A stretch of 58,097 nt of DNA from an uncultured Brevundimonas sp. (GTDB lineage: Bacteria > Pseudomonadota > Alphaproteobacteria > Caulobacterales > Caulobacteraceae). The notes below the pieces were generated by a model. It ran no database searches. It saw only the letters and a list, made by a program, of their open reading frames with translations, and was not told the DNA's origin. Shown here one piece after another: positions 15,722-22,465 of the stretch; the first letter of the stretch is position 1; every line of letters begins with the position of its first letter. The stretch covers positions 1-58,097 of the forward strand of contig CAZUXK010000003.1 of the NCBI GenBank assembly GCA_964624025.1. The letters are read 5' to 3'. Position numbers and translations under genes: made by a program.

Positions 15722-15811
15722 GGACAGGTGGCCGAGTGGTTGAAGGCGCACGCCTGGAACGCGTGTATAGGCGAAAGCCTATCGAGGGTTCGAATCCCTC
15801 TCTGTCCGCCA
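15722..15811 (+). tRNA. tRNA-Ser(GGA)
   Basis: Acceptor GGACAGG/TCTGTCC, anticodon arm CACGC-CT-GGA-AC-GCGTG, long variable arm, GGTTCGAATCC T-arm, G73 plus encoded CCA. Confidence 0.98.
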
Positions 15812-15991
15812 CCCCGCTTGAACTAAAACAATCGCTTAGGTGCCGTTTGCCAAGTGTGCCGTGCGGCGCACCCGCCGCGCGTCGAAGTTTCCCCCTTCAA
15901 GTGACATCGGCACACCGTGGCGCACTCCCGGCACAGTGTTGCGCCGCTTAAACAACCGTGCGTTCAATGGCAGATCAGGGGGGCGGCAATC

Positions 15992-16780
15992 ATGTGGCTG
16001 TTGGTTTATATTCCGGCGCTTGCCGGGATTTGGCGGTATCGCTTTTGGGGATTCTGGAAGTGGGTCGTCGCGATGTTTCTTTTGCAATCGGTTGCCGACT
16101 TTCTCTTCGCTGCGGGTGGCACCCTCGACCAGCCCCAAGGGGATGGGCTGATTACCGGGATGGTGCGTCGGGCAACCGACGACGGTGCTGAAGTCGCCTT
16201 GCTGGGCGTGGGCTTCTGGATCGTCTTCCTGATCGGCGTGGTCCTCATTGTCAGCCAGATGCGAAAAGCCGCGCGGCAACCGCCAGCGCACGCCGAAGTA
16301 GCCAGCAACGTGCCACTGCTGAGACGCACTGCGGAGACTGGCGGTCTGACCCTTGCGATAGCTGCGCTGATGTTCGTTTCGCTCTCGGCGATGATGTCGG
16401 AGAAGCCCTTGGCAGCGACGCAAGACGCTTACACGCTCGAACAAGAAGTCGCCGACGCAGCAGTGGAAATCGGCCGAACCGTGCCCCAGCAGATCGACCC
16501 TTCGACCAAGCTGGTCGGCGTTCGCTCGGCTGGCCGCGTCCTGATCTACGACTACGAGCTTTCGGAACGTGGCACGCCCGAACAGATGCGCGACTTCTTC
16601 GCGAAGAACTCGCTGGCGCGGGTTTGTGCGGATGCGGTGATGCGCCCAGAGATGCGGCGCGGCGTGACGTTCCGCTACTCCTACATGCTGATCGGGCAGG
16701 AGGCACCGGTCGAGATCGACGTGTCTGAGCCGGTCTGCGCCGCAACGGTTGGGGACCGCAGTGGCGGCACGCAACAGTAG
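15992..16780 (+). CDS. Membrane protein with a C-terminal pilotin-like (GspS/AspS2-type) domain
   Basis: Several hydrophobic helices, then P..ID..T.L...LIY.Y...VC...R.GVT..YSY...C; domain call is by eye. Confidence 0.55.
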   Translation: MWLLVYIPALAGIWRYRFWGFWKWVVAMFLLQSVADFLFAAGGTLDQPQGDGLITGMVRRATDDGAEVALLGVGFWIVFLIGVVLIVSQMRKAARQPPAHAEVASNVPLLRRTAETGGLTLAIAALMFVSLSAMMSEKPLAATQDAYTLEQEVADAAVEIGRTVPQQIDPSTKLVGVRSAGRVLIYDYELSERGTPEQMRDFFAKNSLARVCADAVMRPEMRRGVTFRYSYMLIGQEAPVEIDVSEPVCAATVGDRSGGTQQ

Positions 16781-17297
16781 CGCAGCGGGACCGCAGATCA
16801 CGCCAATCAGCGGCCTCGTCGATGACGCGGCCGACTACTTCAAGTCCGTGGTAATTCCTGCGGTCGAACTGGCATGCGCTCACCCTGCCTCGAAGTCCGT
16901 TGCCCTCTCCGCTTTCATCCTTCTTCACCACACTAAGGACTGGGCAAGGCATGAAGGTCTGATCACGTCGGAGGCCGACCTGTGGGCACATTGTCCCTAC
17001 GCCAATGTCATCGCGGAGATCGCGAACGGCGGGAAGCACCGGGTTGTCGGAGACAAGCATTTGGTAGCTGATCCAATGGTGGTGGAATTCCGGCTGTGCC
17101 GTTTCGGAGAAGGCGGCTACGGGGTCGGACCTTACGGCGTTGAAAATATCCAAGTGAAAGGCCGCAAGCTCGCGTCCGAAAAGCCGACGTGGCGATCTGT
17201 GCGAGCAGTCCTTCAGGAAGCTGTCGGCTGGTGGAAAACGACGCTCGATGAAGGCGCGGCTTCCAAGATTCAGGTTTCGCCCGGCGCATCACCCTGA
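16749..17297 (+). CDS. Hypothetical protein, possible HEPN-like fold (start uncertain)
   Basis: Helical ORF with A...LHH..DW and CP....IAEIANGGKH; no ATG start. Confidence 0.5.
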   Translation: MGTAVAARNSSAAGPQITPISGLVDDAADYFKSVVIPAVELACAHPASKSVALSAFILLHHTKDWARHEGLITSEADLWAHCPYANVIAEIANGGKHRVVGDKHLVADPMVVEFRLCRFGEGGYGVGPYGVENIQVKGRKLASEKPTWRSVRAVLQEAVGWWKTTLDEGAASKIQVSPGASP

Positions 17298-17579
17298 GAG
17301 GCTGGGGTGCCAGAACGACGTGAATGACGAAGCGTCTTCAAGTCGCTCAAACCAAATATCGAGCGAGCCGTCTTCCAACCCTGCGAAGCCCACCCATTGG
17401 CCTTTACACATTGCCTCCAGCCAAAGGCAAACGCTCCCGATCCAAGAGCGTTGGCGAGGAGTAGTTAGACGAGGAAATCTGGTTTGAGTGTGAACCCAGT
17501 CCTTCGATCCGATCTCTGTGACCTTCTGTAAGAGCACGAGTCTGTCTTCATCTTCTTCAACGATGATCTGTCTTGTCAT
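17289..17579 (-). CDS. Small hypothetical protein, phage-like
   Basis: 96 aa with ATG start; WL...C.GQW....IWFE..EDA..F..W pattern. Confidence 0.55.
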   Translation of the reverse strand: MTRQIIVEEDEDRLVLLQKVTEIGSKDWVHTQTRFPRLTTPRQRSWIGSVCLWLEAMCKGQWVGFAGLEDGSLDIWFERLEDASSFTSFWHPSLSG

Positions 17580-17685: not shown

Positions 17686-18198
17686 CTATTTGATTGGCGA
17701 AAACTCAGTGGACCACACAGTCCTCCGGTCCTCGGAATTCATGTGCTGTTCCTTCAGCACATAGCTCGCGGCCGTCGCGTGGTCGTCGATGATCCGCAAC
17801 GTGTAGGAGCCGGGAGGCACGATGTCGTTCCACACGCCGCCCCGTTCGCCGGGAAACATGCGATGGAACCGCAACAACCGATTGGTGCCCGGCGGCGTAG
17901 GTGGCACGCGCCACATTGCGTGGGCGTGAACGCTTCTGCGATCCCCTTCGAATGCGAAGAGGGCCAGCGATCTCGCTTCGCTCGGCAGCTTATGAAAGCG
18001 CCGCCCGAGGAGTTCTTCGTCAACCCGCCGATGAAGGCGGCGTAGATCGCCCTGAGCGGCCTCCAGACGGGTGTCTCGGTTCCACGACAGGGTAAGGACG
18101 TGGGTGAAGCGCAATGCCGCACAGAAGCGCGCCTGAGCCTCCTTAAAGGCTACTCGATTTCGCCCAACAAATGATGGCTCTTCGCTAATGTTCGACAT
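17686..18198 (-). CDS. Small HUH endonuclease / rolling-circle Rep-like protein
   Basis: Ordered RCR motifs: I THVLTL, II E....VHAHAMW, III SYVLK (YxxK). Confidence 0.75.
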   Translation of the reverse strand: MSNISEEPSFVGRNRVAFKEAQARFCAALRFTHVLTLSWNRDTRLEAAQGDLRRLHRRVDEELLGRRFHKLPSEARSLALFAFEGDRRSVHAHAMWRVPPTPPGTNRLLRFHRMFPGERGGVWNDIVPPGSYTLRIIDDHATAASYVLKEQHMNSEDRRTVWSTEFSPIK

Positions 18199-18255
18199 CA
18201 CTCATATCCATCTTCTACGATAGCGCACAGACTACTGGGCCGCCATTTGTTTTTG

Positions 18256-18288
18256 TATTTAAGCTAAGCGTCGAGCGGCTGGTAAATA
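18256..18288. promoter_or_regulatory. Back-to-back TAAATA boxes resembling the T4-type late promoter
   Basis: TATTTA at 18256-18261 (minus-strand box facing the HUH gene) and TAAATA at 18283-18288, 4 nt before ATG 18293, with no SD. Confidence 0.5.
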
Positions 18289-18292
18289 TTCG

Positions 18293-18580
18293 ATGAGATA
18301 CATCGAGATCATCCGCGAAGCCATGACAAGTTCTTCGCGAGCCGCAAAGACTATTAGCGACGCGGCAGCACGGAAGGCTGACGCACTTCGCACCTATCAA
18401 GGCAAGCTTCGCGTTGCGAAGGCGGCCGAAGCGAACGCCCGCAGCACCGAAGCGTCGGCGGCACGAACAGACCGTCTGGCCGCCAGCCAGCAAAAGCGAG
18501 CGGACGCTGCCGCCACCTATCAAGCTTCAATTCGCAGGGCCGACGATGCCATCCGTCGCTCGCGGCAACCCGACCGTTAG
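18293..18580 (+). CDS. Small Ala/Arg-rich helical protein with a capsid-targeting-sequence-like N-terminus
   Basis: 95 aa starting MRYIEIIRE-A; leaderless arrangement. Confidence 0.65.
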   Translation: MRYIEIIREAMTSSSRAAKTISDAAARKADALRTYQGKLRVAKAAEANARSTEASAARTDRLAASQQKRADAAATYQASIRRADDAIRRSRQPDR

Positions 18581-18608: not shown

Positions 18609-18684
18609 GTGGCACAGAGAAGTTGGCACGGCACCACTTAAACATATGAAACTCCTTGTGATTGATGGCAGTCAGGCTGGGATT
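18609..18684 (-). other. Internal inverted att-like site (core plus arm-type repeats)
   Basis: Reverse complement of 18666-18684 is AATCCCAGCCTGACTGCCA, 14/19 identical to the tRNA end; TTGGCACG lies 35 bp from this core, as it does at attR. Confidence 0.6.
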
Positions 18685-18731: not shown

Positions 18732-18803
18732 GATGTAGCGGACCACAATATGCGAGTCAAGTCGTATTTCCCCACTTGACGCATTGTTTGAAGATGGTAT
18801 GTT
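18732..18803. promoter_or_regulatory. Divergent housekeeping-type promoters around an inverted repeat
   Basis: Plus strand TTGACG(18776)-N16-TATGTT toward MarR/integrase; minus strand TTGACT(18760)-N15-GCTACATC; inverted repeat GTCAAGT/ACTTGAC at 18756-18780. Confidence 0.5.
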
Positions 18804-18845: not shown

Positions 18846-19304
18846 ATGAAGCGACCGGTCCAGCATGGTGTCGAAGGCACAGATACAGATCGCGTGATGG
18901 CCGCGATGAACGGTCTCGCCGACCACGCCGCGACGTTCGCGGCAATTGAGTCGAGCGTCCGCACGATTGCCGAACTGATGCCCGCGCGCGTGTCATTGCG
19001 GCAGGGCCTCGCCTTCCTATTCGTCGTTCACGCCAACGCTCGGGGCCGCCGAGTGACGATGACAGACGTTCGCCAATCCTTCAGCGAAACGGAACACGGC
19101 TCGGTCAGCGTTGGCCAGTCCATCGCGAAGTCGTTTCAGGTCTTCTTTGAAGCCAGCAAGCAAGAGCCGAACGGCCTGAACTGGGTTCGGCAGGAAGCCG
19201 ACCGTGACGACCGGCGAAAGAAGTATCTGGTCATCACCGCCGAGGGCGCGGAGGTCGCACTGAAGATGGTTGCGCCTCCGCAGATCGAAGGCGACGAAGC
19301 ATGA
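18846..19304 (+). CDS. MarR-like winged-helix protein
   Basis: C-terminal GLNWVRQEAD.DDRRKKYLVIT.EG wing motif; ATGA coupling to the integrase. Confidence 0.8.
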   Translation: MKRPVQHGVEGTDTDRVMAAMNGLADHAATFAAIESSVRTIAELMPARVSLRQGLAFLFVVHANARGRRVTMTDVRQSFSETEHGSVSVGQSIAKSFQVFFEASKQEPNGLNWVRQEADRDDRRKKYLVITAEGAEVALKMVAPPQIEGDEA

Positions 19305-20401
19305 AATCCTTCGCCCTCAAGCCCAAGTCATCGGGCATCCTCTACGTCGAGTTTTACGAAGGAGAGGTTCGGCGACGCATCACCACGGGATCACGAGATA
19401 CGAAGGTCGCACGTCAACGCGCGCGAGAAATCGTTAGCGGAAACGTCGTCACTCCGACCCCCTCCGCACCGTCGAAATCGAGCGGGATGACGATGGGCCA
19501 ACTGCTTGATCTGTGCTGTAAAACTGTCTGGGCACCCCGCAATGTTCGATCACAGCGGACGGTGAAATCCAATGCCAAAATCCTTCGCGAGATGATCGGC
19601 GACGAGCCGGTTTCCGACATGACGTTCACCCGACTGGAGCTTCTTGTTCAGGAGCTTTTCAACCGTGGCTACGCTGCCGGAACAGTTCATCGGAAGATGT
19701 GCGCCGTCAGCAAAGCCCTGAACTATGCCGCGAAGATCACGGGGCCGAACGGTAAACCTGTCTTCCATGGCAAGCCGTCGATGCCGACTGTGGTGACGAA
19801 GAATTCTCGAAGCCGCGTCATCACGGCTGCGGAAGAGAAAGCAATTTTCTCTGCCATCGAAAAGCGAGCGAACAGCGAACCGGCTCGGTCATGGACGCGG
19901 TTCGCGCACTTGATCAGGTTCTTGCTCGATACGGGATGTCGCTTGGGTGAAGCCCTCAATTTGAGCGACGCGCTGATCGAATCCGATGGCGACGCGACCT
20001 TCGTCACCTTCCCGCGATACTCGACGAAGAACGACGAGCCTCGCAAGCTGCCGCTATCGAAAGCTATCGTCGCGAGCTTGCCCTACCTCCGGTCATGCGC
20101 CGTAGGTGAGAAGCTGTTTCCGATGAAGTCGCAGACCGTCTGGTATATGTGGAACTCGATCCGCTCTGACCTTGTGGCAGCGGGTCTTCCAGTTGCCGAT
20201 GTCGTTCTTCACACGATGCGCCACACCTGCCTGACGCGCCTCGCCCGCAGCGGCCTCGTGCCGCTGGAGCGTATCAGCGACTGGGCAGGGCACTCGACTA
20301 TTCAGGTCACGATGGACCACTATCGGCACATGCTGCCCGCCGACAAGCTCTCGACTCTCGCCGTCATTGAGGACATCGCAGCCGCAAATGCCAACCAATA
20401 G
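19301..20401 (+). CDS. Tyrosine recombinase / phage integrase
   Basis: Catalytic R (TGCRLGE), K (TKND), HxxR (HTMRH), H (AGHS) and Y (DHYRH) all intact. Confidence 0.96.
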   Translation: MKSFALKPKSSGILYVEFYEGEVRRRITTGSRDTKVARQRAREIVSGNVVTPTPSAPSKSSGMTMGQLLDLCCKTVWAPRNVRSQRTVKSNAKILREMIGDEPVSDMTFTRLELLVQELFNRGYAAGTVHRKMCAVSKALNYAAKITGPNGKPVFHGKPSMPTVVTKNSRSRVITAAEEKAIFSAIEKRANSEPARSWTRFAHLIRFLLDTGCRLGEALNLSDALIESDGDATFVTFPRYSTKNDEPRKLPLSKAIVASLPYLRSCAVGEKLFPMKSQTVWYMWNSIRSDLVAAGLPVADVVLHTMRHTCLTRLARSGLVPLERISDWAGHSTIQVTMDHYRHMLPADKLSTLAVIEDIAAANANQ

Positions 20402-20504
20402 TGTTGTCCCACTTTGCGAATTATCACACTATTCTTTTTGTCGATACTATAGTGGCCACGCTTGGCACGCTTAATACTGATAACGTATTGTTATTGTTGT
20501 GTTG

Positions 20505-20525
20505 AGTCCCGCTCTGTCCGCCACC
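20505..20525 (+). other. attR (displaced tRNA-Ser 3' end)
   Basis: AGTCCCGCTCTGTCCGCCACC versus AATCCCTCTCTGTCCGCCACC in the tRNA. Confidence 0.88.
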
Positions 20526-20692: not shown

Positions 20693-20874
20693 TTTCCCTG
20701 CTAACAGGGAAAACATCAGGGAATTTTGGCGGAAAGCGAAGCCCGCCCAGCGCAGGCATCGGCGCGAAATGCCCACGCTGCCTGCATTTGCGGCGCGCGG
20801 TCGAGTTCCGCCGGCTGCAGGAAGCAGGGAATTTTTCGCGCCCGATCAGGGAAGCGTCGGCGGATTTCAGGGAA
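20693..20874. repeat. CAGGGAA repeat array downstream of the serine recombinase
   Basis: Palindrome TTTCCCTG-CTAA-CAGGGAAA (20693-20712) and direct copies at 20717, 20825, 20847 and 20868. Confidence 0.8.
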
Positions 20875-22465
20875 GCAGAGCCGCCCGCTGATCGTCCCAG
20901 GCCAGGGGGATCGCACGATGGCGCAGGTCCTCCAGACAGAGCCCCGGCTTCTGTCGGCCCTCCAGGAAGGCGAGCTGCACGTCCGGCGCCAGATAGGCCA
21001 GCCGGACGAGGTCGCGCTGATGGGGTGAGGCAGGAGATCGCACGATCATCCCCTCATCTCCGGCGTGGTCGGCCAGGATCGCATGGGCCGCCTTCAGCGC
21101 CTTGATCAGCGCCTGGCTCAGCCGCGCCTGCCTCGGCGCCTCGCCCTGGACCCAGGCGCGCCCACCCCGGAACTGAAGCCGGCGCGGCACGTGGAGCCAG
21201 AGCCTGGCGCCGTCCAGCGACAGGCGCTCGCCGGGCTCAAGCAGACGCGTCAGCCGCTCGATCACCATCGGAACCGACCGCTCCTCTTCGGCCAGGACGC
21301 GGGTCGCCAGCGCGATCTGGACCGCGGCATCGTGCACCTCAACCCGTGTCAGAAGCGTTTGCGGGTCGACGTGGGGGGCAAGGCGATAGAGCACCCCGAT
21401 GACCCACCGCTCGGTCGCGAGGGCCGGCAGGCGGTGGATGGCGCCGGGGCGAGGGTCGCGGGTGCGGCGGATGATGGTGCTGGAGACATAGTACCGGTGA
21501 GGCGCCCCGCTGCGGCCGTAGGCGTGCATCGGGGTCATGGGCACGCCATCGGCGTCGAAGATCTTGCCCTTCAGCGGCAGTAGCGGCGGCGGGGGCGCGA
21601 TGCGGTCCTTACGCTTGCTCGCTGGCCCGCGGCGGGCCCGGGTCGCCAGCTGCGCCTGGACCCGACCAAAAGTGGTCTGGTCGATGATCGGCGGATGGTC
21701 GCTGGGATAGGCCTGATCCTTGTGCGGGACCATGCCGAGGTAGGTCTTGTTGCGCAGCAGATGGTAGAGGGCCCCGTTATCGAAGGGCGTCCCGCCGAAC
21801 ACTGCCCCGGTCGTCGCGGTCCAGCGTTTGGAGACCCGCCCCTCGGCTTTCAGCTCCTGCTTCAGGGCCGGCACCGACTGCAGCTCCAGGAACCGGCGGA
21901 AGATGTGCCGGACCAGCTCGGCCTCCGCCTCGTTGAGCTTCAGCTTGCGGCCGGCGGGATCGTATCCGAGGGGCGGGCATCCCCCCATCCACATGCCCTT
22001 CTTTTTGGAGGCGGCGATCTTGTCGCGGATCCGCTCGCCGGTGACCTCCCGCTCGAACTGCGCGAACGACAGCAGCACATTCAGTGTCAGCCGTCCCATG
22101 GAGGTGGTGGTGTTGAAGGCCTGGGTCACCGACACGAACGAGACGCTGTGCCGATCAAACACCTCCACGATCCGGGCGAAGTCGCTCAGCGCCCGGGTCA
22201 GGCGATCGACCTTGTAGACCACCACCACATCGACCTTGCCGGCCGCGACGTCGGCCAGCAGCCTCTGGAGCCCTGGCCGCTCCATGGTGCCGCCCGAGAT
22301 CCCGCCGTCATCGTAGGCCGTCGCCAGCGCCGACCACCCCTCCCCCGCTTGGCTCTTCACATAGGCCTCGCAGGCCTCGCGCTGGGCATGGAGCGAGTTG
22401 AAGTCCTGCTCCAGCCCTTCCTCGGAGGACTTGCGGGTGTAGATGGCGCAGCGGAGCCTAGGCAT
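20867..22465 (-). CDS. Large serine recombinase
   Basis: CAIYTRKSS, DDGG.SGG..ERPGL, VYKVDRLTR, LLSFAQFERE, G..PLGYD motifs; 532 aa. Confidence 0.95.
   Translation of the reverse strand: MPRLRCAIYTRKSSEEGLEQDFNSLHAQREACEAYVKSQAGEGWSALATAYDDGGISGGTMERPGLQRLLADVAAGKVDVVVVYKVDRLTRALSDFARIVEVFDRHSVSFVSVTQAFNTTTSMGRLTLNVLLSFAQFEREVTGERIRDKIAASKKKGMWMGGCPPLGYDPAGRKLKLNEAEAELVRHIFRRFLELQSVPALKQELKAEGRVSKRWTATTGAVFGGTPFDNGALYHLLRNKTYLGMVPHKDQAYPSDHPPIIDQTTFGRVQAQLATRARRGPASKRKDRIAPPPPLLPLKGKIFDADGVPMTPMHAYGRSGAPHRYYVSSTIIRRTRDPRPGAIHRLPALATERWVIGVLYRLAPHVDPQTLLTRVEVHDAAVQIALATRVLAEEERSVPMVIERLTRLLEPGERLSLDGARLWLHVPRRLQFRGGRAWVQGEAPRQARLSQALIKALKAAHAILADHAGDEGMIVRSPASPHQRDLVRLAYLAPDVQLAFLEGRQKPGLCLEDLRHRAIPLAWDDQRAALLP

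Follow-up and report, generated by a model that had tools for sequence, protein, structure and literature searches.

Divergent TAAATA boxes in a small tRNA-integrated island of Brevundimonas: predicted promoters for the late sigma factor of T4-related jumbo phages

Two copies of the hexamer TAAATA, and exactly two, occur in the stretch of Brevundimonas DNA analysed here (58,097 nt, hereafter the window). They are divergent, pointing outward with 21 bp between them, and each faces a gene. Which sigma factor reads them, that of the host or that of a phage? The features in question are as follows.

17686..18201, minus strand: stand-alone HUH endonuclease, 170 aa from ATG 18198 (motifs, predicted structure, fold matches).
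18256..18261, minus strand: TAAATA box toward the HUH gene, predicted phage late-sigma promoter (motif count, homologue comparison).
18283..18288, plus strand: TAAATA box ending 4 nt ahead of ORF95 and predicted to be a phage late-sigma promoter that gives a leaderless transcript (motif, homologues, host-spacing control).
18293..18580, plus strand: ORF95, helical hairpin with the N-terminus MRYIEIIRE (profile search, structure model).

No Shine-Dalgarno sequence is present in the 4 nt between the end of the plus box and ATG 18293. For the HUH gene, the distance from the minus box is 54 nt to GTG 18201 and 57 nt to ATG 18198. This layout is the one described in the original prediction, down to the 21-bp spacing, the leaderless gene and the lack of further copies in the window. 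That prediction took T4 as its model, in which late promoters are read by gp55 with gp33 and gp45. The boxes are GGTAAATA and CTTAAATA. Both contain the 6-nt core, and neither equals the full T4 8-mer, TATAAATA, from which their first two bases depart.

A genome-wide count, proposed at the outset as a check, gave 9 copies of TAAATA in 2.55 Mb of 71% GC DNA. The copies are indeed few, but across the 64 AT-only hexamers the count varies between 4 and 71, and TAAATA falls inside that range, so that its scarcity alone is unremarkable. Scarcity was dropped as evidence, other AT-only hexamers being equally rare. In 100 shuffles of the window, TAAATA appeared 0.42 times on average and at least twice in 5 of the 100. 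Support beyond chance comes from the retention of the boxes in homologues, which is analyzed below.

The boxes lie in a 4.7-kb island of low GC, integrated at tRNA-Ser(GGA) and bounded by 22-nt direct repeats. Its remaining features are these.

15722..15811, plus strand: tRNA-Ser(GGA), the integration site (ARAGORN).
15792..15813, plus strand: attL, the 22-nt direct repeat at the tRNA 3′ end (repeat family D8, 91% identical to 20504-20525).
15992..16780, plus strand: cargo gene for a 262-aa hydrophobic, probably membrane protein of no family, start uncertain (sub-threshold Pfam hits only; no PADLOC hit).
16749..17297, plus strand: second cargo ORF, at most 182 aa long, without a family and with an uncertain start (Pfam, PHROG and PADLOC scans).
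17289..17579, minus strand: 96-aa ORF of no family that follows the HUH gene in the same direction (ORF list, locus comparison).
18776..18803, plus strand: sigma70-type promoter candidate TTGACG-16-TATGTT for the regulator–integrase operon (promoter scan).
18846..19304, plus strand: putative DNA-binding regulator, 152 aa, overlapping the integrase start (weak phrog_9665 hit, E 0.0014).
19301..20401, plus strand: tyrosine integrase, 366 aa (PF00589, E 5e-16; phrog_1).
20504..20525, plus strand: attR (repeat; contig match ends).

Contigs of two sequencing runs from two other studies (X3 and X4) contain nearly the whole island at roughly 93–98% identity, and the match ends at 20524, confirming the right end of the island. 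No attP junction was seen in the contigs of four sequencing runs, a result that is uninformative on its absence. The island thus has an integrase and att repeats and no virion genes of its own, which is what is expected of a satellite. No helicase or primase hit was obtained in the element, and a k-mer search across 10 elements found no shared nick site or origin. Two short non-coding sequences between ORF95 and the regulator are kept in the window and in two related loci (L011 and L012): GGCACGG (window 18625-18631) and TGGC(A/G)GTC (window 18666-18680), the latter an inverted repeat in L011 and L012 that is degenerate in the window. They are candidates for a terminator, an operator or a nick site. 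The 96-aa ORF has a homologue behind the HUH gene of L012 (26% identity, pairwise E 8e-7). At the aligned place of the regulator–integrase promoter, L011 has TTGACA, and the promoter sequence is not conserved in L012. Homologues of the regulator were found in L011, L012 and L013 only, that is, in 3 of the 14 related loci compared. Right after attR, a separate second mobile region begins with a large serine recombinase (PF00239 and PF07508; window 20867-22465, minus strand, onward).

In the HUH protein, H91-x-H93 and Y146-x-x-K149 are invariant in 21 aligned sequences. The structure model (pLDDT 85) has SIRV1 ORF119 as its top PDB match; geminivirus Rep is also among the matches, as is microvirus/gpA Rep. 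Because the metal-binding motif and the catalytic tyrosine are invariant and the matches are of Rep-type fold, the HUH label given to the leftward gene holds. The protein belongs to no Pfam, PHROG or PADLOC family, and tblastn against 72,556 plasmids gave no match.

Loci encoding related HUH proteins were gathered by protein similarity rather than by motif and, with duplicates merged and the window included, number 32. Left out of the 32 are two loci with sensor-kinase frames (L007 and L008), a 21-residue match (L017) and a second copy in one genome (L028). Sense TAAATA lies within -100 to +15 of 11 of the 32 HUH genes and is the commonest of all hexamers there; its reverse complement, present in 7 of the 32 regions, is the second. 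In 500 dinucleotide shuffles of these regions the sense count averaged 0.97 and never exceeded 6, a test that overstates the case because the loci are kin. The sense box is missing from 21 of the 32, two of them sister to a positive locus. In a tree of 30 HUH proteins, box-positive loci occupy several long, deep branches and the negatives are mostly in separate groups; loci of the same family group with named Phenylobacterium and Brevundimonas records, which points to a host in Caulobacteraceae. One locus (L002/L108) has two full copies of TATAAATA. The original prediction was to fall if the boxes were not conserved upstream of homologues; TAAATA is kept ahead of homologues of both HUH and ORF95 at 25–50% protein identity, so this condition did not refute it. 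Four distant HUH loci from other families of the order (L110, L111, L112 and L114) keep TAAATA, gave no ORF95 hit, and share a protein of 150–184 aa, the L110 copy of which is phrog_31551, of unknown function.

The ORF95 box is placed more strictly. ORF95 homologues occur at nine HUH loci. In six of the nine, the ATG follows TAAATA at a distance of 4–5 nt. The remaining three have the homologue in third position in an operon whose start lies 21–25 nt past a TAAATA that is divergent from the HUH box. In these operons (L108/L002, L109/L003 and L016), genes of 78, 71 and about 90 aa, the last being the ORF95 homologue, follow one TAAATA; the elements have a resolvase, with a tRNA-Pro or tRNA-Gln adjoining in two and a tyrosine integrase in two. 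When the window, L011 and L012 are compared, no invariant stretch ahead of the ORF95 ATG is longer than the box, and the flanking bases are not conserved. Ten database homologues have N-termini over-extended by gene callers, and the added residues of 9 could encode TAAATA 4–7 nt upstream of the true start. Of 254 control windows, 2 could do so. The test shows compatibility rather than the actual bases.

As to ORF95 itself, the model is a hairpin of two helices, H3-50 and H56-91. A fold search returned generic helical matches only, none at E ≤ 0.001, and an Atlas search gave three viral hypothetical clusters at 0.77–0.79, which we take as a lead only. There was no match in Pfam, PHROG or PADLOC, none by tblastn in 50,697 phage records, none in the five jumbo phage records searched and none in 400 other genomes of the class. 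A profile search collected 37 clusters, and in 33 of these the N-terminus is M[RK]-hydrophobic-x-[ED]-hydrophobic. The MRYIEIIRE of ORF95 is likely, judging by its sequence, a head-targeting tag.

The combination of box and tag is found in phages. IMG/VR was scanned for TAAATA, a gap of 4–5 nt and a coded tag. The scan matched 74 viral stretches, several of them on contigs of 400–608 kb, ahead of unrelated proteins. In each of three uncultured phages of 415–608 kb, the series TAAATA, 4–5 nt, ATG, MRYxEII occurs about 17–20 times. For these three, a looser form of the pattern returned 18, 17 and 20 rows, a few of them double, and a permuted hexamer 1, 2 and 0, counts that are partly circular because the records were found with the pattern itself. 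Neighbouring ORFs outside the query give the same picture: a box lies within 16 nt of 16 of the 28 tagged ORFs versus 29 of the 501 others. Four of five such jumbo records encode both a member of phrog_234, the T4 gp55 late sigma family, and a homologue of the T4-type head maturation protease, the fifth record being 72% complete.

One of these records (G623) is complete at 517 kb. TAAATA is its top hexamer at gaps of 3–6 nt, preceding 44 of 756 ORFs, 42 of them at gap 4–5. Nine ORFs have both box and tag, 35 the box only, 6 the tag only and 706 neither, a partly circular tally since the record was found by the pattern. Among hand-picked genes, TAAATA lies within 40 nt of those for sheath, tube, portal, large terminase, baseplate wedge and head–tail adaptor. 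In the same genome (L148-L173), about 44 genes are leaderless and of late type, and an RNA-ligase-family protein is among those with the tag; paralogous groups open with a second motif, M[ST][NH]WYRN, and a NUDIX hydrolase is tagged without a leaderless box.

The sigma factor of another record (G622) has its closest cultured relatives in PA5oct-like phages and in Sinorhizobium phage Phosso (43–46% identity). Cultured phages were rejected as models of the leaderless form, of which Cr30, T4 and Phosso have 0 cases, Atu_ph07 has 1 and PA5oct has 3. In Caulobacter phage Cr30, TAAATA lies 28 nt before the prohead core gene, so that Cr30 could still read the boxes. In Atu_ph07, a run of similar-sized hypothetical genes (L116:39484-50000) includes two ORFs, beginning MRWEQLTE and MKWNDLNE, whose starts lie 20 nt past a TAAATA, so that box and tag occur here with a leader. 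Two of the four tagged proteins of PA5oct have a mass-spectrometry virion note, against a baseline of 93 of 461 proteins in the portion of PMC7318152 consulted; the link from tag to virion is weak. The proposal of a T4-type late promoter survives in its core and in the gp55-encoding phages that share it; the closest match is to uncultured jumbo phages of 400–600 kb, not to T4 or Cr30. Related-locus scans of IMG/VR with two alignments (A1 and A2) found no relatives of the element.

Of 401 genomes from the order, 4 also have box plus tag, one of them being the source genome. There, a second islet of about 1.9 kb (L105:4049-5989; G000 contig C37, box at C37:13671) lies between a tRNA-Thr and a repeat of the tRNA end, with no integrase seen. 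It has an 82-aa ORF (MRIDEV...), unrelated to ORF95, with TAAATA 4 nt before the ATG; searches with this ORF gave 31 database homologues and no match in the five jumbo records. A divergent 333-aa ORF presumably resembles a formylglycine-generating-enzyme-type domain. In another genome (L143, G575:C55:15601), a chromosomal 77-aa ORF beginning MRFRDLIE, again unrelated to ORF95, stands 5 nt behind TAAATA and is possibly another phage-responsive gene.

We judge that the boxes are probably read by a gp55-type late sigma factor of a T4-related jumbo phage, a prediction drawn from the promoter comparisons above. To the fuller proposal, that they are such promoters in a minimal tRNA-integrated satellite of a jumbo phage, we incline by a modest degree. 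With boxes of phage type, the island is likely quiet until a jumbo phage infects. The cycle would run as follows. The regulator–integrase operon would be driven by its ordinary host promoter, and the HUH gene and ORF95 would stay silent until the phage late sigma factor reprograms the host RNA polymerase. The HUH protein would then nick the excised element, and rolling-circle synthesis with borrowed enzymes would yield DNA that the phage could package. ORF95 would be made from a leaderless mRNA, like the products of many late genes of the phage itself. Its MRYxEII..E tag would send it into proheads, where the head protease would clip it, and the protein would aid packaging or delivery of the element, or else handicap the phage. 

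A more general proposal is made tentatively, as possible rather than probable: minimal alphaproteobacterial islands may parasitise uncultured T4-related jumbo phages by a double mimicry, that of the late promoter and that of the capsid-targeting signal. On such a reading, the copied promoter would restrict the rolling-circle nickase to the late phase, and the copied signal would load an island protein into the phage head. By analogy with the T4 in-vitro system, the HUH nick might in addition load the phage sliding clamp and boost the boxes in cis. The relevant part of PMC2988020 describes basal transcription by gp55 alone on supercoiled DNA, with a nick serving as the clamp-loading enhancer.

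A different use of the same phage late-sigma promoters would be a defence tripwire. The module would then not be a satellite, and the element would spread otherwise; late HUH protein would nick phage or host DNA, and ORF95, serving as a tagged decoy, would block either the assembly of proheads or the head protease. All of the promoter evidence fits this equally. From locus to locus the HUH–ORF95 pair has tyrosine or serine recombinases as neighbours that are not related to each other, like a portable cassette, the element yielded neither origin nor helicase, and box and tag recur at an unrelated small gene in the tRNA-flanked islet lacking an integrase. Against this, no PADLOC hit was obtained for any of the six element proteins scanned (model library of 2023), and in HUH proteins of this fold initiation is sequence-specific. 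Further, islands that a jumbo phage was shown to package have inovirus-Gp2-like genes in their core, according to the text of PMC12595487 available to us; a kinship of the island HUH protein with inovirus Gp2 lacks support because the former has no Pfam hit. We consider the defensive role rather unlikely, though it is the main rival.

It is improbable that the boxes are read by the host, whether as -10-only or regulator-assisted sigma70 promoters or as sites for the island’s own regulator, with the likeness to phage reflecting gene ancestry. Leaderless genes are common in the host group, where TAnnnn peaks at gap 6. In the part of PMC4287350 that bears on this, TTAA half-sites are CtrA sites in Caulobacter, and about 37% of mapped start sites have no assigned sigma motif; a TTAA overlaps the left box. 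Spacing tells against the host. In a set of 1548 long host ORFs, TAnnnT is most frequent at gap 6 (25 ORFs) and gap 7 (10), with 0 at gap 4 and 2 at gap 5, and no TAAATA was found at gaps 2–12 before the ATGs of these ORFs. The ORF95 start codon, its position read from the sequence, is instead at gap 4–5, as in G623, and the sigma70 reading of its box was rejected on this ground; TAAATA also lacks the -7 T. No sigma70 pair was found at either box, and the bases 5′ of the box vary between homologues. A role for the regulator is opposed by the limited occurrence of its homologues (3 of 14 loci) and by retention of the box where the regulator is missing, and gene ancestry by the failure to find ORF95 in the five jumbo records.

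Coincidence in the AT-rich intergenic DNA of foreign islands is very improbable: AT-only hexamers are all rare in this genome and the upstream regions are AT-richer than the rest, but the conserved position of the box, fixed at 4–5 nt across diverged homologues amid unconserved flanking bases, largely refutes it, as do shuffles that reach at most 6 of 32 against the 11 observed.

What would the late-sigma satellite mean if true? A six-base promoter would allow sensing by way of the phage sigma factor, and a nine-residue tag would allow entry by way of a head-sorting signal. Satellites of lytic jumbo phages have been demonstrated only lately, and the portion of PMC12595487 at hand offers no promoter mechanism by which the helper is sensed; its main text does not mention TAAATA, sigma or HUH. 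A literature search, covering mainly open-access papers, listed no publication on a bacterial island with gp55-type promoters. The box-plus-tag signature is a means of finding further host genes that respond to such phages, as with the second one in the source genome, and it suggests Caulobacteraceae and Sphingomonas as the host group of phages of 400–600 kb known from metagenomes only. Should the module be defensive, it would be a new late-promoter tripwire.

Among known systems, the promoters of T4 and of jumbo phages CBB and GAP32 come closest to the boxes. As far as the sections consulted go, T4 late promoters have an 8-bp box and no -35 element (PMC2988020), ATAAATA is predicted before structural genes in CBB and GAP32, and CBB has a gp55-like gene, with gp33 and gp45 not detected (PMC5259590). 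The island boxes share the TAAATA core and the lack of a conserved -35, and would likewise have a start about 5 nt downstream (PMC2988020, PMC5259590). They differ in lying on a host-chromosomal island and in having the 6-nt core only. The ORF95 transcript is predicted to be fully leaderless, like those of the uncultured jumbo phages and unlike those of T4, Cr30 and PA5oct.

The nearest parallel in logic is P4, which answers the late activator of its helper, as the island would answer a late sigma factor. Like the island, P4 integrates at a tRNA site. P4 carries the alpha primase-helicase, Sid and Psu, families that the island is without; alpha, sid, psu, delta and ash had no Pfam or PHROG hit among seven element proteins. 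The P2 late activator, Ogr, also promotes the P4 late genes, as stated in the part of PMC8628076 consulted. Ogr is an activator, not a sigma factor, and P2 is a small temperate phage. The island would resemble P4 in this late response and is outside the satellite families tested.

With the Pseudomonas islands I23, I44 and I55, the island shares a tyrosine integrase, direct repeats at a stable RNA gene and the lack of transfer genes; its putative regulator and its HUH gene would be the counterparts of their HTH and inovirus-Gp2-like genes, and I55 is selectively packaged by a jumbo phage, so far as the available text of PMC12595487 describes them. Those islands are larger (20–70 kb), use a tmRNA site and carry alpA, YqaJ and RadC plus defence cargo (same text of PMC12595487). 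Ours is at tRNA-Ser, with no AlpA hit and no intY–tmRNA arrangement. The HUH protein, for its part, is like the stand-alone Reps (SIRV1 ORF119, geminivirus Rep and microvirus gpA) in fold, HUH motif and single YxxK, and differs from them in having no Pfam or PHROG family, helicase domain or identified origin.

The predicted tag, finally, resembles the capsid-targeting sequences of T4 IPI–III. IPII and IPIII start with MKTYQEFIAE. The genes for the T4 internal proteins are early genes. These proteins have capsid-targeting propeptides of 10–20 residues, cut after Glu by the head protease, according to the portion of PMC5694885 consulted. The MRYxEIIxE of the host-island protein, a putative tag, differs from the T4 version in being one residue shorter ahead of the first Glu. 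In both cases, a short N-terminal series of basic, aromatic, Glu, hydrophobic and Glu residues is carried by unrelated proteins.
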